In this document: positions 6,792 to 21,060 of the stretch, in pieces
How positions within the stretch are numbered: the first letter of the stretch is position 1
How the letters are laid out: the number at the start of each line of letters is the position of its first letter
Source: a virus
Lineage: Duplodnaviria; Caudoviricetes
Direction: 5' to 3' (one strand)
Virus record (IMG/VR): IMGVR_UViG_3300008117_000709
Location: 1-24,565 of that record
DNA length: 24,565 nt
Notes under the pieces: generated by a model
What the model was told of the DNA's origin: nothing
The model's database searches: none
What the model saw: the letters and a program-made list of their open reading frames with translations, nothing else
Translations under genes and position numbers: made by a program

Positions 6792-6826
6792 GTAGTCGTT
6801 CGATAACTAAACAGGAATTAGCACAC

Positions 6827-7474
6827 ATGATCCGCATATCCACTACATCGAAGCTTGACGGGGTTCGCTCGTGGTCGCTTCAGGCTCGCGAGACTTGTCC
6901 CGGCTCTTTTGGTTCTGACGGTGAGCTTGTCCCGGCATGCGTTGGTTGTTATGCCGTTGGTGGCAACTACCGATATCCGAACGTTAAAGAGCCGCGCATA
7001 GAAAACCGGGAAGACTGGAAGCGCCCGGAATGGGTCGCCGATATGGTCGCCGCGTTGCGTAACGATAGGTTTTTCCGTTGGTTTGATTCGGGCGATATGT
7101 ACGCGCTCGCGCTCGCCGAAAAAATTTATCAAGTAATGGAAGCGAACCCGGATGTTCGGCATTGGTTGCCTACCCGAATGCACAAGTTTCCGAAATTCGC
7201 GGATGTGATCAAGCGCATGCAAGCGCTGCCGAACGTCATGGTTCGCCCGTCATCCGATAGCGTTACCGGAGAATATGTACCGGGTATTCACGGCTCGACC
7301 ATTGTCCCGGCTATTGATCAAGTACCAACGGGCGCGACGTTATGCCATGCCGCCACCAATGCCGGGAAGTGTGGCGCGTGCCGTGCCTGTTATGACAAGT
7401 CCGTAGCCGTCGTCGCCTATGTAGCGCACGGGCGCAGCATGATGAAAGTAATTCGCGAACAGTTAGCCGCCTAA
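6827..7474 (+). CDS. GP88-family (radical-SAM-like, Cys-rich) protein
   Basis: SWSL.A..TCPGS...ACVGCYA, FFRWFDSGD, HWLPTR, C-terminal C...GKCGACRACYD. Confidence 0.8.
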   Translation: MIRISTTSKLDGVRSWSLQARETCPGSFGSDGELVPACVGCYAVGGNYRYPNVKEPRIENREDWKRPEWVADMVAALRNDRFFRWFDSGDMYALALAEKIYQVMEANPDVRHWLPTRMHKFPKFADVIKRMQALPNVMVRPSSDSVTGEYVPGIHGSTIVPAIDQVPTGATLCHAATNAGKCGACRACYDKSVAVVAYVAHGRSMMKVIREQLAA

Positions 7475-7494
7475 CCAACAGGGAGAACTAGCAC

Positions 7495-7701
7495 ATGATC
7501 ACGTATCGACAATTTCGTAGCCTAGTGAATCGTGAAGTAATCCGTCAGTCTGGCATGGGACTAGAGTGTCTCGCCGATTGCGATATATCGGACTATTGGG
7601 ATTCTGATTTTACTGATCAGGAAGCGCAGGACGCGGCCATCGAATGCGCCCATATGGTACTGGCCGAAAACGATTTCCCAATGGATTGCATCGGAGAATA
7701 A
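7495..7701 (+). CDS. Hypothetical acidic protein (68 aa)
   Basis: GGGAGA RBS plus AGCAC motif; in cassette. Confidence 0.75.
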   Translation: MITYRQFRSLVNREVIRQSGMGLECLADCDISDYWDSDFTDQEAQDAAIECAHMVLAENDFPMDCIGE

Positions 7702-7705
7702 GCAC

Positions 7706-7912
7706 ATGAAAGTACGCGCCAATAGTTGGTATACCTACCGTCCTGCGCTCATCGACCAATGGAACGCATGCACTACGCTACGACCGGGCGACCGGGTACA
7801 GGTAAGAAAAGCGCCCGGATGTCCGCCACCCAATACCATGGGCCATGCTCACGTTTACGACGAGACCGGGAAGCTGCGCGGCCTAGTTCACACGGCTAGC
7901 CTGACGCGCTAA
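7706..7912 (+). CDS. Hypothetical protein (68 aa, PGCPPPNTMGHAHV motif)
   Basis: GGAGA RBS plus AGCAC motif; ends before terminator. Confidence 0.75.
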   Translation: MKVRANSWYTYRPALIDQWNACTTLRPGDRVQVRKAPGCPPPNTMGHAHVYDETGKLRGLVHTASLTR

Positions 7913-7932
7913 CAAGTTTTCGGTGCTAACAC

Positions 7933-8484
7933 TCAGGGGGCTTCGGCCCCCTCTTTTTTCTCAGGCGTGACATCTATGGTTATGCCGCGCTCCAGTATTC
8001 CGGCGAGTCCGGTCAAGATTTCGGTGCGCTGCTGAATTTCAATCGGGCCGCCGTCTTTGCCGGTTAGTTCTACCTGTTGTCGGTCGCTCCACCCTAATCG
8101 GGCCTTTGCCAAAAAGATTGCAGCGGTATCGGATCCGGCAATCGCCCGTTGAGCGAGCGACCCTACTACGTCGGTCATCATTCGGGTGCGACCGTGTTTC
8201 ATCTCGTCGTCGTAGTGTTCGCTCAGAGTTTCGGGCGATACCTTCAACGCTTCGCATACTTGCCTGACCGTGAATCCGGCTAGGGACATGGTGGCGACGG
8301 TCTGGGCAAGTGTCGGGTTCGGGTGCGTTCCCTTCGGTCGTCGCCCGTCTTTTGTGTCCGTTACGTTATTAAGTAACGCTTGGTCGCCTTTCGCTCTAGG
8401 ATCGGTTTTAAGCGGTCGGTCTGCCACCCCGCTACCCACGCCTAGGGTCTGTGTCTCCGTCGCCTCTAATGCCTTCTCCGTCAT
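7933..8484 (-). CDS. terS: Putative terminase small subunit
   Basis: GAAGGAG RBS before ATG 8484; HTH (GFTVRQVCEALKVSPETLSEHY), GSDTAAIFLAKARLGW and QVELTGKDGGPIE motifs typical of TerS. Confidence 0.7.
   Translation of the reverse strand: MTEKALEATETQTLGVGSGVADRPLKTDPRAKGDQALLNNVTDTKDGRRPKGTHPNPTLAQTVATMSLAGFTVRQVCEALKVSPETLSEHYDDEMKHGRTRMMTDVVGSLAQRAIAGSDTAAIFLAKARLGWSDRQQVELTGKDGGPIEIQQRTEILTGLAGILERGITIDVTPEKKEGAEAP
7935..7959 (+). terminator. Rho-independent terminator
   Basis: AGGGGGC-TTCG-GCCCCCT perfect 7-bp stem with cUUCGg loop, then CTTTTTT; overlaps the 3' end of terS. Confidence 0.85.
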
Positions 8485-8577
8485 CTTTACGCGCTCCTTC
8501 GGTTCAGCCCGTAGCCTGTGGGTATTGTGCCTCCGGCAAAACATAAAAACAATACCGAGTTCGATAAATTCTCTACC

Positions 8578-8813
8578 ATAAGAACTAATTAGAACGAATT
8601 CCGGTGATGTAAGTCGTTGATTGTCATAGATAAATACATTAAAAAAAAATTAATATCTATATACCCTCCTATCCTTTTCCTACTCTACCCCCTTGTGTTG
8701 TTTCATAGTTTTTCTTTGCTCTTTTTTCCCCTTATGTTCCAAACAATAACTAATTAATTATTCCGACTCCTTACTTTTCAATGACTTACAATTAATTAGT
8801 TCATTTGTTCTTA
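8578..8813. promoter_or_regulatory. AT-rich noncoding element with inverted IHF-like sites (candidate origin or packaging site)
   Basis: 8610-8622 reverse complement AATCAACGACTTA matches WATCAAnnnnTTR; 8776-8788 TTTCAATGACTTA has one mismatch; repeated AACTAATT. Confidence 0.55.
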
Positions 8814-8901
8814 AAAGGATTTTATCGATTCGCAAAACAGTCATAAGCAACTAAGAAAAATCAGGACATACGATTTTCACCCCTAATTTGCAAAAAATCT
8901 C

Positions 8902-8930
8902 TTGACTTGACGGTTTTTCTGGAAAACAAT
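8902..8930 (+). promoter_or_regulatory. Putative sigma70 promoter
   Basis: TTGACT-17-AACAAT upstream of GAGG RBS and ATG 8961. Confidence 0.4.
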
Positions 8931-8960
8931 AGGTCGTTTTTCTAACCATGAGGAATTTAA

Positions 8961-9278
8961 ATGTTATATTTTAAGGCCCTAACTCAAATAAATTCACCGG
9001 CAACGGCTAAGCAGGTGTTCGACAAGGCCAAAGAGATGGCCCCTCACAAGACGCGAGACCTACAGACCGTTCGGGCAGCGTTGGCCTATCTGGTGCGGAC
9101 TAATCGTGCCATTCGTGTCGGGCATGGACAGTACCAAGCCATACAGACCAACGAAAACGAGGTGATCAAACTGGTCGCAGAGAACCAGAGGCTACGGGAG
9201 AGACTGCGGACGCTCGCCAAGGCCTTCATGGTCATTATCGAGGCGAACGGCTACCAACTTAAAGACTTCGAGGGCTGA
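8961..9278 (+). CDS. Putative winged-helix DNA-binding protein with C-terminal coiled coil
   Basis: PATAKQVFD...TVRAALAYLVRTNRAIRVGHGQY resembles a wHTH; GAGGA RBS. Confidence 0.6.
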   Translation: MLYFKALTQINSPATAKQVFDKAKEMAPHKTRDLQTVRAALAYLVRTNRAIRVGHGQYQAIQTNENEVIKLVAENQRLRERLRTLAKAFMVIIEANGYQLKDFEG

Positions 9279-9280
9279 TC

Positions 9281-9550
9281 ATGTACGAGATATACGGCAG
9301 ATATAGAAACCTGAAACCTGTGGACATCGAGGAATGTCCGAAAAAAACTGACAAGCTCGTTTGGCGACGTTTAAACGATCAGGGCAAGCGCTACACCATT
9401 TTGGAGGCGCGGTGCGATATGAATTTCTCCGACTTATTTCAATCGGTGCGGGAGCTGCGCCAAGAGGTCGCAGAGTTGCGATTGAAACTCACCGAAACCC
9501 GCAACGAACTGTCGGACTTGAAGCGCAAGGTCTACGGTTCATCCACCTGA
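9281..9550 (+). CDS. Hypothetical coiled-coil protein
   Basis: GAGGG RBS, follows previous stop; heptad C-terminus. Confidence 0.65.
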   Translation: MYEIYGRYRNLKPVDIEECPKKTDKLVWRRLNDQGKRYTILEARCDMNFSDLFQSVRELRQEVAELRLKLTETRNELSDLKRKVYGSST

Positions 9551-9582
9551 TGGTCACTCCCTCATGTCGCAGCATGGGGGTA

Positions 9583-9612
9583 TTGACTAACACAAGCCGC
9601 TTGAATTACCTT
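9583..9612 (+). promoter_or_regulatory. Sigma70 promoter with perfect palindrome CAAGC-C-GCTTG in spacer
   Basis: TTGACT(9583-88)-18-TACCTT(9607-12); preceded by hairpin CCCTCATG/CATGGGGG (9559-9580). Confidence 0.65.
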
Positions 9613-9665
9613 CGACAAAACGAACAAACCCACCCACCATTAGTTAGAACGGACGGAGAAAGCAC

Positions 9666-9800
9666 ATGACCGACCCCGACATCCAAGAGCTTGTTGCTCG
9701 CCTGAAGGACTTTCTCGCCTACTGCGACGACACGAGCTTACCCCGCCCCGCCGGTATCCGGCACGAATCCATACCGGCAACGGAGCCAGAGGTCGCATGA
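9666..9800 (+). CDS. Hypothetical protein (44 aa, MTDPDIQELVARLKDF...)
   Basis: Hand-translated; GGAGAAAGCACATG start; ATGA coupling to next gene. Confidence 0.6.
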   Translation: MTDPDIQELVARLKDFLAYCDDTSLPRPAGIRHESIPATEPEVA

Positions 9801-9991
9801 AGAACTTTAAATGCGCTGACTGCGGCAAAGAGTTCAACGAGCCGCTGCATATCCACGAAAAGGAAATGATCGACTACGGCATCGGTCGCCAATGGGTCAC
9901 GCTCTGGGAGGGCGACGTTTGCCCTGCTTGCGAAAGTACCAACTGGGCCGACATTCCAGAGCCTGAGCCAGAAAACGAGGAGTCCGTATGA
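9797..9991 (+). CDS. Zinc-ribbon protein
   Basis: CADC...CPAC. Confidence 0.75.
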   Translation: MKNFKCADCGKEFNEPLHIHEKEMIDYGIGRQWVTLWEGDVCPACESTNWADIPEPEPENEESV

Positions 9992-10200
9992 ACAATTACA
10001 TTGTGTTGTATCGCACAGAAGAAATCATGTCCCCCTTTGACCCGCCTTTTGGGTTTGAGTGTGAGGCCGACGATGCTGACCACGCTGAAGAACAATGTTT
10101 AAACGCATACCCCGATAGCGGGGTGGTGTGGGTTATCGAAGGCGACGATTACCTCAAAGCCTTGGATCAATACTGGCATGAGAATGAAGTGATCTTATAA
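9988..10200 (+). CDS. Hypothetical acidic protein
   Basis: GAGGAG RBS, ATGA overlap; FECEADDADHAEEQC. Confidence 0.75.
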   Translation: MNNYIVLYRTEEIMSPFDPPFGFECEADDADHAEEQCLNAYPDSGVVWVIEGDDYLKALDQYWHENEVIL

Positions 10201-10221
10201 ACCACAAAGGAGATAGCACAG

Positions 10222-10371
10222 ATGAACAACAAGCAAAAAGCAGCGTTAGAAACGATTGCCAATTTTATCGAATGGTATTCAAGCAACGAAACGGAGCGCG
10301 ACCGACTGTGGGAAGCGGCGTGTGATTACGTTGAGCAAGACCATGTGCTGACGGATGGGGAGGCAGCATGA
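10222..10371 (+). CDS. Hypothetical protein (49 aa, MNNKQKAALETIA...)
   Basis: Hand-translated; AAGGAGATAGCACAG-ATG start. Confidence 0.65.
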   Translation: MNNKQKAALETIANFIEWYSSNETERDRLWEAACDYVEQDHVLTDGEAA

Positions 10372-10541
10372 AAACATACGATGTGACCATCAGGGCAACG
10401 ATTTATAAGACGATCAGGGTGGAGGCTGAAAACGAAGATGACGCTTATGTTGAGGCGCACGAGCGGTTTTCGGTGATGCCAGACGATAGCGAACGGTACG
10501 AAGAAGAAACGATGGATATTGAAGAAGTGGAGGCCGCATGA
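10368..10541 (+). CDS. Hypothetical acidic protein (57 aa, MKTYDVTIRATIYKTIRVEAENEDDA...)
   Basis: Hand-translated; GGAGG RBS, ATGA overlap; common phage 'VEAENEDEA' pattern. Confidence 0.7.
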   Translation: MKTYDVTIRATIYKTIRVEAENEDDAYVEAHERFSVMPDDSERYEEETMDIEEVEAA

Positions 10542-10660
10542 ACCCCAAAAAAAGCAATCGCCACCGATTCGACCCTGTTCCGCAGAACCAAAAAGACGCG
10601 CTGACCCTTGCTTTGAAGCTTGGGATAACGGCAACGAACGAACTGGGGATGAACCAATGA
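10538..10660 (+). CDS. Hypothetical protein (40 aa, ...PQNQKDALTLALKLGITAT...)
   Basis: Hand-translated; GGAGG RBS, ATGA overlaps on both sides. Confidence 0.5.
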   Translation: MNPKKSNRHRFDPVPQNQKDALTLALKLGITATNELGMNQ

Positions 10661-10749
10661 CCCCCACCGACTACGCTTTGGCTGAAACGGCAGCGTACGC
10701 CCTGCTTGTCTTTGCCGCCGTTGTTTATCTCTCTAGGAACCGTCTATGA
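10657..10749 (+). CDS. Small membrane peptide (30 aa)
   Basis: MTPTDYALAETAAYALLVFAAVVYLSRNRL; ATGA overlaps on both sides. Confidence 0.5.
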   Translation: MTPTDYALAETAAYALLVFAAVVYLSRNRL

Positions 10750-11459
10750 ATCAGCTCAATTTAAATCGAATCCATCTATCCCGCGCCGTCTGGCATCGCA
10801 TCTTTGAACACGCGGAGATGCTCTCTGCTTGCAAGGCTGAGATTATTTCAGAGGCGCAAGAACTGGACCGGCTACGCCCGAAGGCTCTGTACAACACCGG
10901 CTCCATCTCAGCGGCATCGGTGTGGGCTTTGACGGCTACGGCCTACTACTTTGCCCCGAAGGTAATCGCGGAGGTCGGCACCTTTATCGGTCGCTCCACA
11001 AGCGCGATGGCTCAAGGCTGCACTTACTCTGGGACGTTCTCCACGATTCACACCTGCGACCTGTCGAATGATATTGACCTGTCGGATGCGATGCCTTTTT
11101 CGTGGGGCGAGGCCGCGCTCGTTCAGTACCCCAAGCAAAGCTCTACGCAGATGTTTAAATCGCTTGCTGACGAGAACGTAAAGCTTGACCTGCTGCATCT
11201 GGACGGGCGCTTGACCGACGAGGACATGGCCCTACTGCCGCAACTTGTCAAAGACCAGACGCTTTTTACTCTGGACGACTTCGAGGGTCTTGAGAAGGGC
11301 GTTGCAAACGCACAACGGCTCATGCACACCTTGGGCAACGTCGCCCACTTTCTGATCTATCCGCCTGAGCGCGACACCTTGGCTCACTTTGGGCTGCGGG
11401 ACGGTTGCACGACCGCGATGTTGCTTCCGCGCTGCCTCTTTCAGATCACGGTGCAATAA
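10746..11459 (+). CDS. Class I SAM-dependent methyltransferase (Methyltransf_24-like)
   Basis: Motif I IAEVGTFIGRST, IHTCD, LDLLHLDG, FTLDD. Confidence 0.8.
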   Translation: MNQLNLNRIHLSRAVWHRIFEHAEMLSACKAEIISEAQELDRLRPKALYNTGSISAASVWALTATAYYFAPKVIAEVGTFIGRSTSAMAQGCTYSGTFSTIHTCDLSNDIDLSDAMPFSWGEAALVQYPKQSSTQMFKSLADENVKLDLLHLDGRLTDEDMALLPQLVKDQTLFTLDDFEGLEKGVANAQRLMHTLGNVAHFLIYPPERDTLAHFGLRDGCTTAMLLPRCLFQITVQ

Positions 11460-11461
11460 CC

Positions 11462-11620
11462 ATGAAACGCGAAAAACAACTGGCTGAATTTGTGGATCGT
11501 CTCATTGAGGACGAGATCCGGGCGGTCTACCGCAAGGTCTACGGGCAGGGCTTTTTCGTGGGCTTCGTAACGGCTCTAGTCGGCGCGATGGTCTTTTACG
11601 CCATCACGACAGGTGCTTGA
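11462..11620 (+). CDS. Small membrane protein (52 aa)
   Basis: MKREKQLAEF...GFFVGFVTALVGAMVFYAI; C-terminal hydrophobic helix. Confidence 0.6.
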   Translation: MKREKQLAEFVDRLIEDEIRAVYRKVYGQGFFVGFVTALVGAMVFYAITTGA

Positions 11621-11899
11621 GCTTGTAAAGCGCTGACAAGTAATGCCCCACAATCTCGTCAATGATGTTCTGGATCGCGCTTTCCTCGGCGTCGCAAAAC
11701 TCAAAGCGGCCTGTGGCGATACGGTCGAGCTGATCTTCCAGAAACTCCACGAGGTCGCGGTTCCAAGCTCAGGCAAGCCCTCGTAGAACTTCTGGGTCGC
11801 CTTGTGGACGGCGTACGACGGCGTATTTAAATGCACCGAATGGGCAACGTCCCTTGCCAAAAAGAGAAGGCCCACGAAGTCAGCGGCTTTCATGCTCAT
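11604..11899 (-). pseudogene. Ferritin/Dps-like DUF5856-type gene with internal deletion and frame change near 11763
   Basis: N-part MKAADFVGLLFLARDVAHSVHLNTPSYAVHKATQKFYEGLPEL; another frame continues NRDLVEFLEDQL...ESAIQNIIDEIVGHYLSALYKLKHLS*. The usual central D..AEAYQG segment is missing. Confidence 0.7.
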
Positions 11900-11943
11900 G
11901 GCAATAGCCTACCCCGAGGGCTGCGGAATTTCAAATGGGGGGC

Positions 11944-11983
11944 TTGCGTTGCCCCAAAGACGGGCATACACTCAAGCCGATTG
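11944..11983 (+). promoter_or_regulatory. Sigma70 promoter followed by operator-like CAAGCCGATTG
   Basis: TTGCGT(11944-49)-17-TACACT(11967-72); motif at 11973-11983 covers the expected start site. Confidence 0.6.
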
Positions 11984-12022
11984 GTTTAGCAAATCGTACA
12001 TACAAATAACTAGGAGAAGCAC

Positions 12023-12211
12023 ATGAACGGACGAAACGATGACCCTCGCCAGATGAACGACGAGGAGATGATGCAAGAGCTGGACCGAGCGATGGGTGAG
12101 TTCTTTGCGATGGAAAAGCAACTGGAGCAACAACTCACGCAGACCAGCGCCAAGACCCTACAGGCGTCGGCCAAGGCGATGGATCACTTCATGGGATTGC
12201 TGTTTAAGTGA
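12023..12211 (+). CDS. Hypothetical helical protein
   Basis: AGGAGAAGCACATG start. Confidence 0.7.
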   Translation: MNGRNDDPRQMNDEEMMQELDRAMGEFFAMEKQLEQQLTQTSAKTLQASAKAMDHFMGLLFK

Positions 12212-12212
12212 C

Positions 12213-12575
12213 ATGGCTCCGTTCCCTGACTTTCGGGAGCTGCGGGGGATTGCGCCCAAGGCCACGGTTCGCTGCGAGGTGTGCGGTACCGAGCATCGGG
12301 GGCGTTGCCATATGTTCCGCAAGAAGCCATACAGGAAAGCCCCGCCTCAAGAAACCCGCCGCTACAAAGAGGCCGCGAAGTTACATCAGCAGGTGGCCCG
12401 GGCGCGGTGGTGGATCAAGCAACTGACGGAGGCAGTCGATGAAGCAAGAGATTCCGGTGGACTCGGACGAGCGCGTAAGCCGCCCCCCGTTGCCCAAGAG
12501 CGAAAGAGAGTTGCTCGTCGAGCAGATCGTGGCGATGCAGCGGCAAATATATCTGATGGAGCGAAAGTTAAATGA
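12213..12575 (+). CDS. Hypothetical protein with CxxC...H...C zinc-finger-like motif
   Basis: MAPFPDFREL...RCEVCGTEHRGRCH; starts right after the previous stop. Confidence 0.55.
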   Translation: MAPFPDFRELRGIAPKATVRCEVCGTEHRGRCHMFRKKPYRKAPPQETRRYKEAAKLHQQVARARWWIKQLTEAVDEARDSGGLGRARKPPPVAQERKRVARRADRGDAAANISDGAKVK

Positions 12576-12624
12576 GATGGATCAAAAGGAAATGGCGTAC
12601 TTTCAAAGACCGCCTTCTCGTTGA
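12439..12624 (+). CDS. Hypothetical coiled-coil protein (overlapping)
   Basis: GGAGG RBS 5 nt before ATG; helical composition. Confidence 0.6.
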   Translation: MKQEIPVDSDERVSRPPLPKSERELLVEQIVAMQRQIYLMERKLNEMDQKEMAYFQRPPSR

Positions 12625-12709
12625 TTACGACTGGCGATGGGTACCGCCCCCAAACTACCGATGCTCGCGTGGCAAGCAGAGCGATTGCAGATATGGAGAT
12701 TACTGGTGA
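12572..12709 (+). CDS. Hypothetical Trp/Arg-rich protein (45 aa, ...WRWVPPPNYRCSRG...GDYW)
   Basis: Hand-translated; its TGA overlaps the GTG of the next gene. Confidence 0.45.
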   Translation: MRWIKRKWRTFKDRLLVDYDWRWVPPPNYRCSRGKQSDCRYGDYW

Positions 12710-12885
12710 GACACAAAGAGTACATGGTGGATCGGCTGCACGATGAGTTGGAGCGGCTGCGCACCGAGACGGCGAAGCTCAAGGCGGACTTTGAAAAGCA
12801 AGAGCGTGAACGCGAGCGGGGTGAGATTTTCTTCGCTCTTTTCATGTTTGGAGCGGGGCTCTTTTTAGGATGGGCATTGTTATGA
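12706..12885 (+). CDS. Coiled-coil protein with C-terminal membrane anchor
   Basis: GGAGA RBS before GTG 12706; IFFALFMFGAGLFLGWALL tail. Confidence 0.65.
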   Translation: MRHKEYMVDRLHDELERLRTETAKLKADFEKQERERERGEIFFALFMFGAGLFLGWALL

Positions 12886-13088
12886 AACTAGAAGTGTGCA
12901 TCGAAGGCGTGAGTGCCATTGTCCGGTCGGAGCTGAACGAAACGCTCAAGTGCCTTCAGGATGATTTAAAGCGCCGCAAGAAAGGCAACAGCATTGCGAT
13001 CTTTCACATGGACAAGGACGAGGACGTTGCCGAATTGCAGCGGCACATTGATGCGATGAAGTTGGTGCTGCGTTATTACGGAGAATGA
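12882..13088 (+). CDS. Hypothetical protein
   Basis: ATGA overlap; MKLEVCIEG...LVLRYYGE. Confidence 0.7.
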   Translation: MKLEVCIEGVSAIVRSELNETLKCLQDDLKRRKKGNSIAIFHMDKDEDVAELQRHIDAMKLVLRYYGE

Positions 13089-13089
13089 A

Positions 13090-13341
13090 ATGAAGAATCA
13101 TAAAGGTGTTTTTCTGCACATATTTGAGGATGAAGAAGGTGAATCTGTTATCAATTTTCAAGCGGAATTGCTTGGGATTGCGAACAACGTCGCCAGTCTT
13201 CAGCTTTACTCTTGGATTGACGGATTTCCAACCAAAGTCATTGAGATGCCGATGAAGGAGTTACTCTCCAAAAACATCATTTTTTATGACAACGAAAAGA
13301 AGTGGCGCGACAGCGCGGACTATTCTTGGAAAGCTAAATGA
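13090..13341 (+). CDS. Hypothetical protein (AT-richer than flanks)
   Basis: GGAGA RBS; VASLQLYSWIDG. Confidence 0.7.
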   Translation: MKNHKGVFLHIFEDEEGESVINFQAELLGIANNVASLQLYSWIDGFPTKVIEMPMKELLSKNIIFYDNEKKWRDSADYSWKAK

Positions 13342-13562
13342 CCCGCGACGACGTTATCAAATTGGCAGAAGGCAAAGGTTACAGAGCCAAGCCCTGTGTC
13401 GCAGACGGCATGATGGCGGTCAATGTCGGCAAGGCTGAGGACACCAACGAACGTATGCGTCTGACCGATTCGGGACAGTTGCTTGTGGTGGATGAGGGCT
13501 GTTACTGGCAGGTCGGGACGACTGATGAGTGGGCGAAGCATTTACAGGAGCAACCGCGATGA
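13338..13562 (+). CDS. Hypothetical protein (MTRDDVI N-terminus)
   Basis: ATGA overlaps on both sides. Confidence 0.6.
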   Translation: MTRDDVIKLAEGKGYRAKPCVADGMMAVNVGKAEDTNERMRLTDSGQLLVVDEGCYWQVGTTDEWAKHLQEQPR

Positions 13563-13870
13563 CCAACGAAGAACTAGACAGATTGTGGTTCAAGGCGATG
13601 CACCAATCTGTTGAAGAAGACAAAGCATTTATTCGTTACCACTTCGCCGCCCTTGTCGCTGCCGAGAAAGACAAGGAGATTGAACTACTGCGGGCAGACG
13701 CGAAACGATTAGATTGGTGCATTTCTGTCTTGCACTCTCAACGCAAAGAAGATTCATATCTGGTAACTGATACTGGGTGTGGTTGTTGTGGTGGAGGGAA
13801 ATACTTTGATTGCAGTATTTCTGGGCGAGACGCTATTGATGCCGCGATTCGGGCGAGGGGGGAGACATGA
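13559..13870 (+). CDS. Hypothetical protein (FAALVAA...DAKRLDW...CGCC...AIRARG)
   Basis: AGGAG RBS, ATGA overlap. Confidence 0.7.
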   Translation: MTNEELDRLWFKAMHQSVEEDKAFIRYHFAALVAAEKDKEIELLRADAKRLDWCISVLHSQRKEDSYLVTDTGCGCCGGGKYFDCSISGRDAIDAAIRARGET

Positions 13871-14033
13871 CTGTTGAAATCGTGTCTGAATATTGTTTGC
13901 TGCTAATTGTTGTGTGCTTCACCCTGTGCTTCATTGCGTTTACGGCGTTTCTAACGTCATGCGTTGCCCAAATTCTAATGGCGGGGTTTGGGGACTGGAT
14001 GGAGGCAAGGAAAAAAGCGATTCGGGCGAGGGG
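13844..14033 (+). repeat. 17-bp direct repeat GCGATTCGGGCGAGGGG
   Basis: Copies at 13844-13860 and 14017-14033. Confidence 0.9.
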
Positions 14034-14043
14034 CAGCGAGTGA
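13867..14043 (+). CDS. Small membrane protein ending in AIRARG (58 aa)
   Basis: Hand-translated; long hydrophobic stretch; ATGA and GTGA overlaps. Confidence 0.6.
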   Translation: MTVEIVSEYCLLLIVVCFTLCFIAFTAFLTSCVAQILMAGFGDWMEARKKAIRARGSE

Positions 14044-14717
14044 TCTCGACTTTTGTGTTCTTTCATGTGGGTGAGGACTTGTCGATGCCGACCAAGATGG
14101 TGGGGTCGTTGAAGTCCGTGATGCCAAGCGCTGAAGTCATTCAATGCTCTGACGAGGCCACGCCTGAAGTGAAGGGCGTGAATGAGGTCAAGCGCAGCAA
14201 GGGCGATGCGTCAGAGATGATGTACTGGCGCACAAGAGCGTTTGCCGAGGCCAAGATCACCCGCCCTGCGATGTACATTGATTCCGACATGATCTTTGTG
14301 CTGCCTGTGAATCCGGCTGCGTTATTGGCAGAGCGTGAGGTGATCTTCTGCCGCCGGTCGTTTGATCGGGACGCGGGGTTCAACGGTAAGCAGCGCGACG
14401 GGATGTTTAAACAGTACGATGGTATCCCGCTTGGGGTGTTGTACCCCTACCTTGGCTGCGCAACGATCACCAAGAACTACCATGCTTGGAAGGGCATGGC
14501 TGTGCTGATGGGGCTGATGAACCGAAACCTGCGGTCATGGTACGGCGACCAAGAGGCGCTCAAAGTGTACTCGCAGATCTTGTACCCCGAAGCCGTAGGT
14601 GAGATGCAGGAGCTGGACTACGCCTGTCTACCGGATAAGGCTCCGGTGGAGCATGTCCCTCACATCATGCACTTCAAGGGTGCGGCCCGTAAGCAAGCCT
14701 TTCTGAATTCGTTTTAG
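14040..14717 (+). CDS. Putative GT-A fold glycosyltransferase
   Basis: GTG 14040 overlaps previous TGA; DxD motif MYIDSDM, WYGDQEAL, IMHFKG. Confidence 0.75.
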   Translation: MISTFVFFHVGEDLSMPTKMVGSLKSVMPSAEVIQCSDEATPEVKGVNEVKRSKGDASEMMYWRTRAFAEAKITRPAMYIDSDMIFVLPVNPAALLAEREVIFCRRSFDRDAGFNGKQRDGMFKQYDGIPLGVLYPYLGCATITKNYHAWKGMAVLMGLMNRNLRSWYGDQEALKVYSQILYPEAVGEMQELDYACLPDKAPVEHVPHIMHFKGAARKQAFLNSF

Positions 14718-14726
14718 GAGACAGTA

Positions 14727-15032
14727 ATGGAAGAGTTTGACTATTTAAATATCCCCAAGCCCGAGAGCAGCGAAGAGGTCTGGTGCACGATTGGGGAGTC
14801 CGGGGAACTGGATGTGTTCAACTGGGACTTCGTGGAGAAGCAGGCTGCGGTGTACGACAAGCACCCCGGCAACTTGCCCCGCGACAACGTGCAGATCATT
14901 TGCAAGCTCGCGGTATTAATTCGCAAGCAGACGATTTTCAATTGCATGGCGGTCTTGAGCAAGTACGCCGAGCACCCGCCTGAAACGACTGTGATCTTTA
15001 TGCGCGAACCCGAGGTGAGCAATGATGAGTAA
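14727..15032 (+). CDS. Hypothetical protein
   Basis: AGGAG RBS; protein-like composition. Confidence 0.7.
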   Translation: MEEFDYLNIPKPESSEEVWCTIGESGELDVFNWDFVEKQAAVYDKHPGNLPRDNVQIICKLAVLIRKQTIFNCMAVLSKYAEHPPETTVIFMREPEVSNDE

Positions 15033-15198
15033 GGAAGACCCGACCCTGCGTGATTATTTTGCTTCGGCAGCGGTGCAGGGGTTGCTGGCGCGAGACGATC
15101 ATTGGCACAACCCTTGGGACATTGCCCGTGATGCGTACAAGATTGCCGATGCCATGATGGATGTACGCGAAGAGCGAACGGAGCGGGAAGATGACTGA
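15025..15198 (+). CDS. Small phage protein of the TLRDYFA...AY..ADAM type
   Basis: Hand-translated MSKEDPTLRDYFASAAVQGLL...AYKIADAMM; GAGGTG RBS. Confidence 0.75.
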   Translation: MSKEDPTLRDYFASAAVQGLLARDDHWHNPWDIARDAYKIADAMMDVREERTEREDD

Positions 15199-15874
15199 CC
15201 CGTCGCTTCGGGTGTTTATCGGGTGGGATTCCCGAGAAGACATTGCGTATCAGGTGGCGAAGAAGTCGCTTGAGTTGTACTCATCCATTCCGCTCGAAAT
15301 CGTTCCGGTAAAGCAAAACGATCTGCGCAAAGAGGGCGTGTATTGGCGTCCGGTTGATTCGATGGCATCGACGGAGTTCAGCCTCACGCGGTTTCTGACT
15401 CCACACCTCGCGGGGTATACCGGCTGGGCCTTGTTTTGCGACTGCGATTTTCTTTTCCGGGGGGACATCGCGACTTTGCTTGACTACGCCGACGGGGCAA
15501 AAGCGTGCTTCGTGGTACCGCACGACTACCGGCCTACCGAAACGGTCAAAATGAATAACCAACCGCAGCACGTTTACCCTCGCAAGAACTGGTCAAGTTT
15601 TATGTTCATCAATTGTCAGCATGAACAAGTTAAGAAGCTAACGCCAGAGATTGTGAACACGGTCACACCCGCGTATCTTCACAGGTTTGAGTGGCTGACT
15701 GACGATGTGATCGGGCATCTTCCGATTGCGTACAACTATCTTGAAGGGTGGTACACCAAGAATGACTGCCCGAATCCCATTGCCGTGCACATGACCCGTG
15801 GTGGTCCTTGGTTCAAGGACTGGGTGGATGTCGAATATGGCCGCGAGTGGATGGCTGTGGTGGCAACAATATGA
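15191..15874 (+). CDS. Glycosyltransferase (GT-A, CDI/GT8-like)
   Basis: VFIGWDSRE, STEFSLTRF, ALFCDCDF (DxD), YPRKNWSS, HMTRGGPWF. Confidence 0.85.
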   Translation: MTDPSLRVFIGWDSREDIAYQVAKKSLELYSSIPLEIVPVKQNDLRKEGVYWRPVDSMASTEFSLTRFLTPHLAGYTGWALFCDCDFLFRGDIATLLDYADGAKACFVVPHDYRPTETVKMNNQPQHVYPRKNWSSFMFINCQHEQVKKLTPEIVNTVTPAYLHRFEWLTDDVIGHLPIAYNYLEGWYTKNDCPNPIAVHMTRGGPWFKDWVDVEYGREWMAVVATI

Positions 15875-17250
15875 AACTCACCAAGCAAGACATCATCAAC
15901 AACGTCGAGAAACTTTTCAAGGCGAAGAAGTACGAAGACGCTTTGGACTTGTGTAACTACGGAATTGCCAAACATCCGTCGAGTGGGATTCTGTGCCGTG
16001 CGAAAGCCAAACTCTTGCAGACTATGGGTCGGTTTCGTGAGTCTATCAAAGCCTACTCGTTGCTGATTGATACGGGCGAGGCGCTTGCTGAGGACTACTA
16101 CAACCGGGGCATGTGTTACTCGGAACTCCAGCAGTACGAGAAAGCGATTGCCGATCAGAACGGTTCGCTCAAGGTAGACCCGAAGTTCTACATGGCGTAC
16201 ATGCAGCGGGGTGCGAGTCAATGGGAGCTGCGGCGTTGGGATGACGCGCTGGAATCGTTCCGCAAGGCGCACGAGATCAACAGCACCGACCCCAACTGCC
16301 AGTGGATTCTGGGTTTGCTCTCGTTGCAGATGAACGACTTCAAGACGGGCTGGCCCTTGTATGACACCCGGTGGCAGAGCGAACGATTTAAATCGCCAAG
16401 GCTCAATACCGACAAGCCGCAGTGGACGAAGGAGAGCGGCGCCAAGTCGGTGCTGGTGTGGGGCGAGCAGGGCATCGGGGACCAGATCATTTACGGCACG
16501 TTGCTTCCGACTGTACGTACATTGTCCGGACAGATGACGGCGATGGTGGAGCCGCGTTTGATTCCGCTTTTCTCACGGTCAATGCCGGACATTGAGTTCA
16601 TCCCGAACACCTCGCAGGTTCCGGCAGACAAGCACGAGACGCAGATTCCTTTTGCGAGTCTCGGGGCATCGTTGATTGAGTCCAAGGAAGACATCACCCG
16701 CTACGCCAAGCGTAACTTCTTGAAGGCGGACGACGCCAAGACGAAGGCGATCTGCGAAGAGCTTGGTATTACGGACGATGACTTTGTGGTCGGGGTGTCG
16801 TGGATTAGTTCAGCGATGAAGATCGGCCCTCACAAGAGCATGTCACTCGCAGAGATGATGCCGATCTTTTCGATACCGGGCGTGAAGTTTGTGAACTTGC
16901 AATACGGCCACGTCAAGCAAGATCTCGCGGACTTTGAGGCCAAGCATGGTGTGAAGATCATGCAGTCCTCGGTGGATTGCTGGAAAGACTTGGACGGTTT
17001 GGCAGCGCTTTGCTCAGCGTGCGATGTCATCGTTTCCATTAGCAGCTCCACGGTTCACATGGCTGGCGCATTGGGCGTACCCGTCATGCTGATGGATGCG
17101 AACAAGTTGTGGTACTGGGGCAACAAGGACGGCGACCGTAGCCTCTGGTACCCCTCGGTGCGGATCTTCCCAAGGGACTATGTGACTGCCTCTTGGAAGC
17201 CGCAGATTGAAGCCGTGGCGTATGAGATTCATGTGATGAAGAACGCATGA
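15871..17250 (+). CDS. TPR-repeat protein with C-terminal GT-B/GT9-like domain
   Basis: TPRs (YYNRGMCY, AYMQRGA); VWGEQGIGDQI, FVNLQYG, STVHMAGALGVP, SLWYPSVRIF. Confidence 0.85.
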   Translation: MKLTKQDIINNVEKLFKAKKYEDALDLCNYGIAKHPSSGILCRAKAKLLQTMGRFRESIKAYSLLIDTGEALAEDYYNRGMCYSELQQYEKAIADQNGSLKVDPKFYMAYMQRGASQWELRRWDDALESFRKAHEINSTDPNCQWILGLLSLQMNDFKTGWPLYDTRWQSERFKSPRLNTDKPQWTKESGAKSVLVWGEQGIGDQIIYGTLLPTVRTLSGQMTAMVEPRLIPLFSRSMPDIEFIPNTSQVPADKHETQIPFASLGASLIESKEDITRYAKRNFLKADDAKTKAICEELGITDDDFVVGVSWISSAMKIGPHKSMSLAEMMPIFSIPGVKFVNLQYGHVKQDLADFEAKHGVKIMQSSVDCWKDLDGLAALCSACDVIVSISSSTVHMAGALGVPVMLMDANKLWYWGNKDGDRSLWYPSVRIFPRDYVTASWKPQIEAVAYEIHVMKNA

Positions 17251-17369
17251 GCTGGTTCCCGACCGTGGCGCTGGCAGCATTGTGCGTTGCGGCATCGTGG
17301 CTCTTGGGCGGCGAACTGATTGATGCGGTGTTGTTGTATTTGCTTTTGATCTTGGTGGACAAAAACTAA
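17247..17369 (+). CDS. Small membrane protein (40 aa)
   Basis: Hand-translated; ATGA overlap; hydrophobic. Confidence 0.5.
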   Translation: MSWFPTVALAALCVAASWLLGGELIDAVLLYLLLILVDKN

Positions 17370-17394
17370 ACTTCTAACACAAGAGGGTTGTTTT

Positions 17395-17619
17395 ATGTAT
17401 GATAACGAGTCCCCGCCGGGTTCATGGAAGAAGGAACTCTCGGCTGCACCGTGGGGCTACGGACAGAACCAGAATCAGAAAGTCAGGGATGCCTTGGCGG
17501 CTGTTAGACAACGAGGCATGTGGACCGAAGCGTCGGTACTGGAGACAGAGATCACGACGCTCAAGGCAGAGATTGGTTATTTGATGGAGAGAATAGATGC
17601 GAGTAAGAGAGACAAATAA
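17395..17619 (+). CDS. Hypothetical protein (SPPGSWK...APWGYGQ)
   Basis: GAGGG RBS; helical C-terminus. Confidence 0.7.
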   Translation: MYDNESPPGSWKKELSAAPWGYGQNQNQKVRDALAAVRQRGMWTEASVLETEITTLKAEIGYLMERIDASKRDK

Positions 17620-17785
17620 AACGACTGGGGCGATCAGGGAATACCTTGCTGAGATTGGACGCAAGGGTGGCTCAGCGGCAACGGGTGCAAAGAAGCGCCG
17701 TAGCCCGGACCATTACAAGAAGATGGTCGCAGCCCGTCGTAAGAAGCGTAAGGCCAAAGCAAAGCAGGCGAAAGCAGATGAGTGA
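17597..17785 (+). CDS. Small basic protein with EIGRKGG (KGG-like) motif
   Basis: GGAGAG RBS; YLAEIGRKGGSA. Confidence 0.7.
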   Translation: MRVRETNKTTGAIREYLAEIGRKGGSAATGAKKRRSPDHYKKMVAARRKKRKAKAKQAKADE

Positions 17786-18005
17786 TCCGGTCAACCACCC
17801 TGAGCACTACCAGCAGGGTGGAATCGAAACCATTGACTATATCCGTGCGGTGCTGGGCAAAGAGCAGTTCGTGGCTTATTGCGTGGGCAACGTATTGAAG
17901 TACGCCAGCCGCCCGAAGAAGGGCAAGTATGCAGAGGACTTACGCAAGGCCGCGTGGTATTGCAACCGCGCTGCGGACGAACTTGATAAGGCATCGAAGG
18001 TCTGA
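17778..18005 (+). CDS. DUF3310 (SaV-like) protein
   Basis: DPVNHPEHY.QGGIETIDYI, GNVLKYASR, EDLRKAAWY. Confidence 0.88.
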   Translation: MSDPVNHPEHYQQGGIETIDYIRAVLGKEQFVAYCVGNVLKYASRPKKGKYAEDLRKAAWYCNRAADELDKASKV

Positions 18006-18011
18006 TACAGT
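17983..18011 (+). promoter_or_regulatory. Sigma70 promoter with extended -10 and no downstream ORF
   Basis: TTGATA(17983-88)-17-TACAGT(18006-11), TG at 18003-04. Confidence 0.6.
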
Positions 18012-18017
18012 TTGATT

Positions 18018-18083
18018 GTGCTATCTCCTGTTAATGACGGGATTGGCCCCGGATTGAGCACTCCCTCTCCGGGGCATTTTTTT
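18018..18083 (+). ncRNA. Candidate trans-acting antisense small RNA (~66 nt)
   Basis: Own promoter and terminator; 5' end GTGCTATCTCCTGTT is complementary to the RBS-AGCAC motif of six genes. Confidence 0.6.
18046..18083 (+). terminator. Rho-independent terminator
   Basis: GCCCCGGA(18046-53)/TCCGGGGC(18068-75) stem, then A and T7. Confidence 0.85.
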
Positions 18084-20322
18084 ACCTGCGTACTTTGTAT
18101 ACCCGCCGCTCACGACCGGGGCCGTTTGGCTTAATGATGTCCTCCATGATGTCGCCCGATTCCAAGAGCGTATTGAGATACTCGTTCCGATCCCGAGCCT
18201 TCATGCCTTGGCAAGCCTTGGCGAGTTGAGTACCGCTCATACCTTCTTTGCCTGCATCGCGAATGAGCTTGAGGATTCGCTTGTGCGCGGCTTCGATTTC
18301 GTTCTCTGCCACCTCGCGGTACATGAGTTCAGCGGTGTAGTTGAATGACCACCGCGCAAGATCTGCACCCATCTTCATTACTTCAAATGTAATGACAGGG
18401 GTATGCGGGTTACGGGCGATGGCTTCGATCATGGCGAGCTTCACCGAGATCTCTGCAAAGCGCACCCAGAGATAGTCTTTCTTACGAGCGCATTGAATCT
18501 GCCATTCCTTGAGTTTGTTGTACTCGTCAAAGGCATCGTCTTCCCACTTAACTTGGATGGGTACGACATCGGAACTCGCGACGTGCTGAATGTTTGAAAG
18601 ATTACCGATGCCCACGGGTACCACCGATGCTGCTTCAATGACATCGCGGATGATGTCTTCGGGTGGGCTCTGTCCGCCGTCGGGCACTTGGCTGTCGGGG
18701 TATTCCTCGAACGAAGGCATAAGCAGAATGCGGCTCATGGTGCCGTTATCCAGCATCTCAAACGTTAGTGCCTTGGTGAGCGACGAAGGCGTCGTGGTGC
18801 CAAAGAAGTTGAAGTTCGGTTGCTTGATGTCAAGACGCTTACGGTCTTTGTTGTCGGCGTACTCTTGGCCGTGATAGGTGCCACCGCTGCTGGAGTAAAT
18901 CTCAAGCAAAGTCTTGATGATGTCGCGCTGATGACCCGCTGCATTCTTGGCAGTCAAGCTTTGAAGGTAGAGGCCCATCTCATCAAGGTGGGAGATGCGC
19001 GAGGGGAAATCGTGCAGGGTGCGTAGAATCGCAACGCCTGATGAGAAGCGGTCGCCTGAGATGTAGTTGCTTAAGTTTGCGTCCTCCAGAATCTTCTTGA
19101 CCTTCTGACGCGAGTGATCTTTACCGGCACCGGGGGTGGCCACCGCAATGGAGAAGATGTTGCAACGGGTGCCAAACGAACTCATTGCGTACCGTCGCCC
19201 GAAGATTGCGCCAAACATGCAGATGGAATTCATCAACGCAAAGGTCGGCTGCGGTTGCTGGGAGCATGACAAAATCCAGCGCGTGACGCGACCCACGAGC
19301 GAGGGGCTTTCAAACCATTCGTTCGGGAAGTTGGAGCGGTTGCTCTTGGTGAACTTCTTGGTTTCGGTGAGTCCCGTCAGATCCACCCGCACTTCTTTGG
19401 TCGGATTCAGATTTAAATGCGGCGCAGGTACCCAGCCGTTTTGCTGAGCAAAAAAGTAGAGCGTACCGGCTCCGATCTTGGAGGGCGGCGACTTGCCGTA
19501 GTGATCCCACCGCTGCCGTGTCTCAAGGCTGTTGTACTTGCCGGAGGCTTGTGACCACTGGTCAAACACGATGAAGCCTTTGCCTTCGGTGGCGCAGTAG
19601 ACGGCCATACCGATGCGGTTCCAATCGTCCCAAGAAAGATCTGGATTGGGTACAAACTTGAGTGCATCTTGAACGGCAGCGAGTGTACCCGTGAGGCCCT
19701 CGATGGACGTTCTCACATCCTTGTCAGGGATGATGGTTTGCTGGAGCCGCGAGCGTCTCAGGTTGGGCGGCAGGGTTTTGTACGCCGCCTCGCAAGCCTC
19801 CAGCACTTGTTGGTGCGTCACAAGAGGCAACGACTCTAGCGGTACCTCGTGCGGCGCAGAGAAGGGCCACTGGTACGGCTTACCCGTCTCGGGGTGTATG
19901 GCATAGGCAACGAACTGTTGACCAACCCCAAGCACTTCAATCGGGTGTAGGCTGATCTTGGAGAACGGCTCGTTGGTGCGGTACAGGTACAACGCCTTGG
20001 GGGATTTGCCGATGCGTACAAAGTCGGTCTTGCCGAGTTTCTCTTGGATGGTGTTACCGACCGCGATGGCAACGGATGAATCAAGCACATCGACATCAAT
20101 GGCAACGACCTTGCCGGTCAAGATACCGACGCCTGCATCGGGCCACTTCTCCCAGATGTCAATGTGCGAGCGTGAACTATCGACCGTCGTCCAGCGTGGC
20201 ATGTCAAACCACTGGCCATTGTCATACCGTCCGGGCTTCTTGGTCCCCGGCATAATCGGAACAATGGTGTAGCCTGCATCCAGCAGCTTCGCACCATGCT
20301 CAAACATGAATTGATCAGACAT
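18082..20322 (-). CDS. Primase-polymerase / PriCT-2 / DUF3987-like helicase fusion
   Basis: N-terminal Prim-Pol (IVPIMPGTKKP, GVGILTG, AIDVD), PriCT-2 (WDDWNRIGMAV...FDQWSQASGKY...IGAGTL), P-loop PGAGKD, HLDEMG, DNGTMSR. Confidence 0.85.
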   Translation of the reverse strand: MSDQFMFEHGAKLLDAGYTIVPIMPGTKKPGRYDNGQWFDMPRWTTVDSSRSHIDIWEKWPDAGVGILTGKVVAIDVDVLDSSVAIAVGNTIQEKLGKTDFVRIGKSPKALYLYRTNEPFSKISLHPIEVLGVGQQFVAYAIHPETGKPYQWPFSAPHEVPLESLPLVTHQQVLEACEAAYKTLPPNLRRSRLQQTIIPDKDVRTSIEGLTGTLAAVQDALKFVPNPDLSWDDWNRIGMAVYCATEGKGFIVFDQWSQASGKYNSLETRQRWDHYGKSPPSKIGAGTLYFFAQQNGWVPAPHLNLNPTKEVRVDLTGLTETKKFTKSNRSNFPNEWFESPSLVGRVTRWILSCSQQPQPTFALMNSICMFGAIFGRRYAMSSFGTRCNIFSIAVATPGAGKDHSRQKVKKILEDANLSNYISGDRFSSGVAILRTLHDFPSRISHLDEMGLYLQSLTAKNAAGHQRDIIKTLLEIYSSSGGTYHGQEYADNKDRKRLDIKQPNFNFFGTTTPSSLTKALTFEMLDNGTMSRILLMPSFEEYPDSQVPDGGQSPPEDIIRDVIEAASVVPVGIGNLSNIQHVASSDVVPIQVKWEDDAFDEYNKLKEWQIQCARKKDYLWVRFAEISVKLAMIEAIARNPHTPVITFEVMKMGADLARWSFNYTAELMYREVAENEIEAAHKRILKLIRDAGKEGMSGTQLAKACQGMKARDRNEYLNTLLESGDIMEDIIKPNGPGRERRVYKVRR

Positions 20323-20695
20323 TGACGACTTGAACCTCTATGCGCTCTTCGTTGTCGTACTTCTTTGCAGCGACGAGTTCACACACGGCTGCGTCATCGT
20401 CAAATACGACTTCGTTCAGCGCGTCAAGAACTGCTTTAACGATATTGTCGAGGTCGGGTCGGGAAACGTGCCATCCCGTTTTGGTCTTATGGGAGAAGTA
20501 CGCCGTGATCGTAACCTTGACAGGACCTTCTAACACGGTCTTGCCTATCATCGCAACTTGTGCAAACGACTTGAGTGCTCGTTCGTAATCACGAGTCTTT
20601 TGCGGTGTGTACGTCACCACACCACCGGCCTTGGTGCGACCGAAGCGCGGACGGGATTTACCAATGGGTGTGCCATGGAACACGATGTCAATCAT
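20315..20695 (-). CDS. rusA: RusA-family Holliday junction resolvase
   Basis: PIGKSRPRF, RPDLDNIVKAVLDALN...DDAAV. Confidence 0.92.
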   Translation of the reverse strand: MIDIVFHGTPIGKSRPRFGRTKAGGVVTYTPQKTRDYERALKSFAQVAMIGKTVLEGPVKVTITAYFSHKTKTGWHVSRPDLDNIVKAVLDALNEVVFDDDAAVCELVAAKKYDNEERIEVQVVNV

Positions 20696-21060
20696 AGGGT
20701 TACTCCAAACTCTCGCTTAATTTTTTGAGCGTGATCTTTTGTGGGCCGCAGGGAATCCTTGATATAGGCAGCAAGGGTATTGCGCGAAATGCCGATACGT
20801 TTCGCCGCCTCTTGGATGGTCAAACCCCTGCGCACCAAGGCATCGTGCAGTTTAAACCCCGGCCCTACTGAGGCGACCGAACGAAGGTCTTGCACTTTCA
20901 CGGAACCCTTGGTTTTCCGCAGGATTATGGCCACCCACTGGGGCGACGGAGCACGGCTACCCGCAAGCCATCTTGTGACAGCGGTACGGGTACACCCGAC
21001 CAAGGCAGCAAACTGCTCCTGTGTCAAGCGCTTTCGTCTCATGTATTCATTCAGCGTCAT
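20692..21060 (-). CDS. Cro/XRE-family regulator with two tandem HTH domains
   Basis: GGAGG RBS before ATG 21060; LTQEQFAALVGCTRTAVTRW and LTIQEAAKRIGISRNTLAAY. Confidence 0.85.
   Translation of the reverse strand: MTLNEYMRRKRLTQEQFAALVGCTRTAVTRWLAGSRAPSPQWVAIILRKTKGSVKVQDLRSVASVGPGFKLHDALVRRGLTIQEAAKRIGISRNTLAAYIKDSLRPTKDHAQKIKREFGVTL

Follow-up and report, generated by a model that had tools for sequence, protein, structure and literature searches.

The window, by which we mean the whole analysed stretch of 24,565 nucleotides, covers part of the genome of a tailed phage that belongs to a family of uncultured aquatic phages. Its minus strand carries the genes for GroES, the portal protein and the large terminase subunit, the terminase small subunit lies at 7933-8544, and a block of small genes occupies the plus strand from 6827 to 18005, followed by a primase-polymerase, RusA, an HTH gene and a Sak4/SSB/Cas4-like module. 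An oppositely oriented transcription unit, P1 (see below), stands between the terminase small and large subunits, and a stretch of 30% GC close upstream (8580-8900) is a possible packaging site or origin. No GenBank phage matched the window at the DNA level; by portal protein the closest cultured phages are the Caulobacter phages RW, KcrB, RLK and GB2A (59%), and complete relatives of the phage measure 56-58 kb. A primase relative was not found in the GTDB genomes, and the one GTDB contig with a terminase match (50%), in a Burkholderiales MAG, is too little to name a host. From the host-type promoters, the small genes, the presence of ArdC and a like position beside the terminal repeat of KcrB, we infer that the small-gene block is expressed early.

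Between the plus-strand DUF3310 gene (17778-18005, domain match to PF11753) and the convergent primase-polymerase gene (18082-20322, minus strand) lies a predicted small RNA unit. Its putative sigma70-type promoter (17983-18011) overlaps the 3' end of the DUF3310 gene and consists of a -35 element TTGATA at 17983-17988, a 17-nt spacer and a -10 element TACAGT at 18006-18011. The predicted RNA of 66 nt runs from a presumed +1 at G18018 to 18083. It begins with a 5' seed (18018-18028, GUGCUAUCUCC) made of an open GUGCU end and an anti-SD CUCC, with pairing extendable to 18032, and these first eleven bases are the reverse complement of a tag found at ribosome-binding sites (RBSs) of several likely early genes. 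The RNA ends in an intrinsic terminator, a hairpin with a U-tract at 18046-18083 (z about -2.9), which also closes the long plus-strand operon and whose U-tract overlaps the primase stop codon. A consensus terminator scan missed this hairpin and folding revealed it, in agreement with the terminator that an earlier note on this DNA had placed at 18083. The promoter scan did pick up TTGATA-17-TACAGT; as its total of 10 hits was no better than the 12.3 obtained in shuffles, we base the promoter on its conservation. The earlier note recognised no described family, and the window indeed gave no Rfam match at E<=1, including no sequence-and-structure match to the models of C4 and P4 CI RNAs. The minus-strand primase mRNA shows no evident U-tract terminator at 18017-18084, so that read-through transcripts would include the full complement of the small RNA and could titrate it. 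A weak hairpin is also predicted at 18026-18042, partly over the anti-SD bases; similar hairpins fold in many relatives but outperform shuffled linkers (p<0.05) in just 6 of 33, and we make no claim of a conserved structure masking the anti-SD.

Six RBSs in the small-gene block are complementary to the 5' end of this RNA. Site 1 (6810-6829, matching in 14 of 16 positions at 6810-6825) is the RBS of the GP88 gene (6827-7474), the first gene behind the predicted early promoter P1 (6763-6791, TTGACA-17-TAATCT). Sites 2 and 3 belong to two genes of 68 aa each, namely 7495-7701 (site 7477-7497, bulged match 7477-7495) and 7706-7912 (site 7693-7708, bulged match 7693-7706), so that each of the three genes of the P1 unit, which runs up to a terminator at 7935-7960, is tagged. 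Predicted promoter P2 (9583-9612, TTGACT-18-TACCTT) leads into two strings of three overlapping genes and in both the tagged gene comes first: a 44-aa gene (9666-9800) with site 4 at 9655-9668 (bulged match 9655-9666), and a 49-aa gene (10222-10371) with site 5 at 10208-10224, the best match of all (13/13 at 10208-10220). The sixth target, a 62-aa gene at 12023-12211, follows promoter P3 (TTGCGT-17-TACACT, within 11944-11983) and has its site at 12008-12025 (bulged match 12008-12023). The matches had been reported in the earlier note, and their coordinates and sequences proved correct throughout: every one includes the SD and stops 0-2 nt before the ATG (starts at 6827, 7495, 7706, 9666, 10222 and 12023). 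At four of the sites the final A of AGCACA already belongs to the ATG, hence the common tag is AGCAC. Among 42 hand-listed start regions these six alone carry GCAC at the start codon.

Of 23,710 windows scored for how well they complement start regions of the same phage, the 16-mer at 18017-18032 ranked first. This score, the sum of the six best local alignments, was computed for 16-mers taken every 2 nt on both strands with antisense start-region copies excluded; it reached 64, compared with 53 for the best independent window and a mean of 32.8 (sd 3.3). Cofolding with the whole predicted RNA covered 18 of the 42 start regions, and the six targets were the six best, with -8.6 to -14.9 kcal/mol versus -1.0 to -7.8 kcal/mol for the 12 others. 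When duplex energies were computed without restriction for every possible start, the results were noisy, and tests on called genes were used instead.

We examined 97 primase-anchored loci, of which 2 were too short and 95 were counted. The element stands directly behind the primase stop in 91 of these, at 66-100% primase identity, and the 4 loci that lack it form a single lineage (L081, L082, L124 and L125), in which DUF3310 lies directly next to the primase; in L081 and L125 DUF3310 appears to be replaced as well. A model built from 25 copies detected the element once each in the window, G005 and 5 complete genomes, and not at all in the element-less lineage, in KcrB, in MW202545 or in a clade of 48% primase identity (L170-L173), which has a different layout and is without the element. 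Many loci are near copies of each other, so we counted distinct strings, 47 for promoter plus element and 33 for the 5' domain. The first ten bases of the seed are nearly invariant, the linker is free to vary, all copies fold a terminator, and bases 1-5 are predicted to be unpaired (>0.8) in 26 of the 33 distinct RNAs. The earlier note described the unit as lacking an open reading frame, and the total length of 58-87 nt with free indels agrees with the absence of a conserved one.

On the minus strand the element resembles an RBS of the phage itself, which would be expected if it were the relic of a deleted minus-strand gene, or a chance likeness. Yet in 32 of 34 distinct copies no start codon follows the reverse copy, and the two exceptions open only 3 and 24 codons; moreover, the seed is conserved far above its flanks and holds the first rank in the window scan. 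The leftover RBS, which the earlier note had named as a possible refutation, is thereby rejected, and we regard either form of this explanation as scarcely credible.

Ahead of the seed, the pattern TTG-n3, a 17-nt spacer and TAnnnT is present in 43 of the 47 distinct copies, compared with a frequency of 0.0018 at random positions. All 4 misses come from the L013 lineage, where the anchor was misplaced by 3 nt and the sequence shows TTGATA-17-TAAGCT or TAAGAT. From the -10 element to the G of GTGC the distance is 6 nt in 38 of the 43 copies, and since the base before this G is variable, the +1 is placed at G18018. The promoter proposed in the earlier note is found by the scan and supported by the spacing kept in relatives, whereas its TG extension of the -10 is absent from most of them. 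We also considered that the element is the 3' end of the plus-strand operon mRNA or is cut from it, or that its pairing is non-repressive and acts in cleavage or tuning. The operon shares the terminator, the promoter scan was no richer than shuffles, and the promoter elements overlap coding sequence: the -35 lies within the last codons of DUF3310 and, in most relatives, the TA of the -10 is part of its stop codon. However, the spacing is 17 in 43/43 passing copies, the T at position 6 of the -10 is invariant although it lies outside the stop codon, and the distance to the seed is fixed. The Leu codon that supplies the TT of the -35 is CTT, which makes up 23% of Leu codons in the window. Furthermore, the TA of the -10 is not the DUF3310 stop in the window or the L009 lineages, and in the L013 lineage a different gene lies upstream; the pattern is thus retained, with free middle positions, across three coding contexts. 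An operon-derived or non-repressive form is therefore, in our judgement, quite improbable. As judged from conservation only, the element would possess both a promoter of its own and an intrinsic terminator, the mark of a trans-encoded sRNA.

The tag was then defined as GCAC within 3 nt of the start, or TAGCA within 4 nt, and the early block as the same-strand genes up to 14.5 kb upstream of the element, in 14 records with our own gene calls; G014 and G011 (a near copy of G008) were left out. Tags were found at 52 of 361 early-block genes and at 4 of 428 others, counts that we read as a pattern and not as independent trials, since the block was drawn post hoc and the records are kin, so that p-values overstate independence. 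AGCAC is the top enriched 5-mer before early starts (33 of 235 distinct start regions versus 1 of 515 elsewhere). At -12 kcal/mol or better the seed has 65 early sites, and 300 permutations that shuffled its first seven bases and kept the anti-SD gave a mean of 13 and a maximum of 57, the seed beating all 300. By window rank, permutations and cofolding, a short imperfect seed is complementary to several distant translation starts above chance. Tags precede many unrelated small genes, and the set, comprising GP88, ArdC, SprT-like and unknown small genes, differs between genomes; some genomes (G003, G004, G005) have just 1-2. Orthologues of the gene at 12023 retain GCAC-ATG at only 22-47% protein identity, and Atlas searches with the proteins of the genes at 12023 and 8961 returned no usable family. 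Tagged genes seldom overlap their upstream neighbour (6/43 versus 99/175 untagged) and more often have the promoter pattern ahead of them (17/51 versus 16/181). No tags were seen in the absence of the element, the sole element-less lineage being represented without its early region. In one lineage (L046, L063, L070 and L075, the last being G005) a Sak4-like annealing gene carries an AGCAC tag. A different recurrent junction, GGAGGC(C/A)GC-ATGA, joins overlapping early genes in relatives and in the window (9797, 10368 and 10538). Conservation of the element sets in at the G of GTGC and that of the tag stops at the C of GCAC, one and the same base pair. Taken together, a conserved stand-alone unit with a seed directed against dispersed early-gene starts is well supported by sequence comparison.

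Two lineages (L013/L016/L019/L105 and L136/L137/L197) have changed seeds, and their contigs stop before the early block. A tag matching a variant seed was found in none of 283 loci, save unrelated contigs and the elements themselves. L137 and L197 are mosaics: upstream of the element they share about 90% identity with the window, and their terminator is nearly the same, but the primase is only 71% identical and the seed has changed. TTGCAC tags occur alongside the standard seed (L236 overlaps L056 at 100%), a mismatch with no compensation, and tag substitutions at 97 distinct sites were not biased towards changes that G-U pairing would tolerate (opposite U5, G 7, T 15, C 15). The missing wobble signature and the uncompensated mismatches would suit a reading in which AGCAC is recognised by a protein, such as a repressor or nuclease akin to RegA or RegB, or is a DNA repeat that remained after exchange of gene cassettes, with the reverse copy serving as a protein-binding site at a promoter and not pairing with mRNA. 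RegB of T4 shuts off early mRNAs by cutting GGAG followed by an A-rich consensus (PMC3014915). Against such a reading, in 91/95 loci the single reverse copy starts exactly at a predicted +1 and has a terminator behind it. In addition, the L013 variant, with its altered spacer, is still complementary to the SD-spacer-AUG layout, and the spacing from GGAG to AGCAC is variable, which fits an RNA duplex and is a poor fit for a DNA site. We therefore consider recognition by a protein or at the DNA level very unlikely.

The unit is probably a trans-acting sRNA that blocks translation of early genes and so times their shut-off in an apparently lytic phage; it is likely that one small RNA switches the tagged genes off together. 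In the model suggested by the sequences, host sigma70 polymerase would transcribe the RNA of about 66 nt from G18018, its open GUGCU end would nucleate on AGCAC by the start codon, and the duplex would zip over the SD in 11-16 bp, often bulged. The paired SD would exclude the 30S subunit and block early translation, and the overlapping downstream genes would be silenced through translational coupling. As the RNA must accumulate, there would be a delay, and early genes would be turned off after the first minutes of infection.

A second, transcriptional layer may act on the same genes. The operator-like palindrome CAASCNGMTTG is found in P1 (6772-6782) and P2 (9593-9603) and behind the promoter elements of P3 (11973-11983), that is at 3 sites in the window versus 0.41 strand matches expected, and 13 relatives have 32 sites in 118 kb of early block compared with 9 in 462 kb elsewhere; copies near +7 kb fall within the helicase gene. 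The sRNA's own promoter has no such palindrome. A phage repressor at these sites would stop new transcripts while the RNA muted existing ones, and the sRNA promoter would escape this layer. Candidates for binding the palindrome are the HTH gene at 20692-21057 and the conserved gene at 8961. Once it had built up, the RNA would also dampen superinfection by a relative. The same pairing could instead serve mainly immunity: together with a repressor at the palindromes, the RNA would hold early genes down in a carrier state or during dormancy, or would exclude superinfecting relatives. The seed is nearly invariant across the family and would give cross-protection, and the target promoters hold operator-like sites; C4 of P1 and P7 works in immunity (PMC12197685), and the start-associated sequences (SAS/ESAS) of cluster K mycobacteriophages occur in temperate phages (PMC3203893). 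On the other side, a search confined to tyrosine integrase, resolvase and ParA found them in 0 of 5 complete genomes, and the GTDB genomes hold no primase relative. A mainly immune role is therefore unlikely. The earlier note had offered immunity or timing as the purpose of one sRNA silencing early genes; comparison upholds the conserved unit and its tags, while lysogenic immunity is disfavoured by the lack of these three systems, and a role in timing or superinfection is likelier.

The literature covered, which included few subscription journals, held no description of the present RNA, nor of any phage sRNA that has many early genes of its own phage as targets. To our knowledge, described phage sRNAs have one phage gene or host genes as targets, and shut-off of a whole class of early genes is known from proteins, for example RegB of T4. 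The CI RNA of P4 is a phage RNA that pairs with short sites near the RBS of its own mRNA. The C4 RNA of P1 and P7 likewise pairs around the RBS of the phage's own mRNA, but acts through loops on one antirepressor mRNA in lysogenic immunity (PMC12197685). The present RNA would use a single-stranded 5' seed on up to six dispersed genes 6-13 kb off, and its predicted targets are GP88, ArdC, SprT-like and unknown small genes, in contrast to the antirepressor or immunity operon controlled by C4 and P4 CI. In its own promoter, short imperfect seed, many targets and U-tract terminator, the predicted unit resembles bacterial trans-encoded sRNAs and the phage RNAs PreS, VpdS and DicF; those described have mostly host mRNAs as targets, whereas here they would be the phage's own tagged genes (PMC12197685). 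The post-transcriptional shut-off of early mRNAs at the SD region by T4 RegB and RegA, with specificity from bases 3' of GGAG, is similar (PMC3014915), in role only, since these are proteins and RegB cleaves.

The closest precedent, as an analogy, is SAS of the cluster K mycobacteriophages. Two reports describe SAS as a conserved, SD-containing tag at the starts of unrelated non-structural genes, mostly after intergenic gaps, with a single reverse copy away from gene starts and inverted repeats upstream of some tagged genes; its function is unexplained there, and a partner RNA or protein is left open (PMC3203893, PMC12699233). The present tag likewise stands at the starts of non-structural, mostly non-overlapping genes and has one reverse copy away from starts, and the 11-bp palindrome in three target promoters is a feature merely analogous to the paired 17-bp repeats of SAS. 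The tag differs from SAS in being SD plus AGCAC with variable spacing and not a fixed 13-mer consensus, in occurring in 1-6 copies compared with 11-19 in cluster K, and in belonging to another host group. Unlike that of SAS, the reverse copy here lies at the predicted +1 of a conserved unit that has a promoter and a terminator, and no integrase was found, in contrast to the temperate cluster K phages. From sequence, then, the element is real, conserved and uncatalogued; it would act in the manner of a seed-pairing sRNA and does not belong to the C4 or SAS family.

If this is true, an RNA that uses a common tag to control early genes of its own phage, in a set that shifts between genomes, would be a new layer of phage timing. 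The present unit also provides a concrete, testable model for SAS, for which the 2025 paper gives no functional test. With 66 nt and a host-type promoter, the unit can be tested in reporter strains, for which the phage is not needed. More tentatively, and as a possibility that we hold to be somewhat doubtful, the system might be an RNA address system in which a five-base tag next to the start codon enrols new early or anti-defence genes and one conserved sRNA sets when the early phase ends and silences superinfecting relatives, SAS and a unit in KcrB being independent versions. The KcrB unit (L149, 15981-16071) would offer a cultured test case and is a lead only, as its rank (2,691 of 40,283) and its permutations (51 of 209 equally good) are weak statistics. 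It comprises TTGACA-17-TAGCCT and, after 6 nt, a 55-nt unit that starts from GTCTC and contains an anti-SD-like run and a terminator, and GAGAC is the top 5-mer before the early starts of KcrB, at 11 of 40 compared with 4 of 56 other starts.
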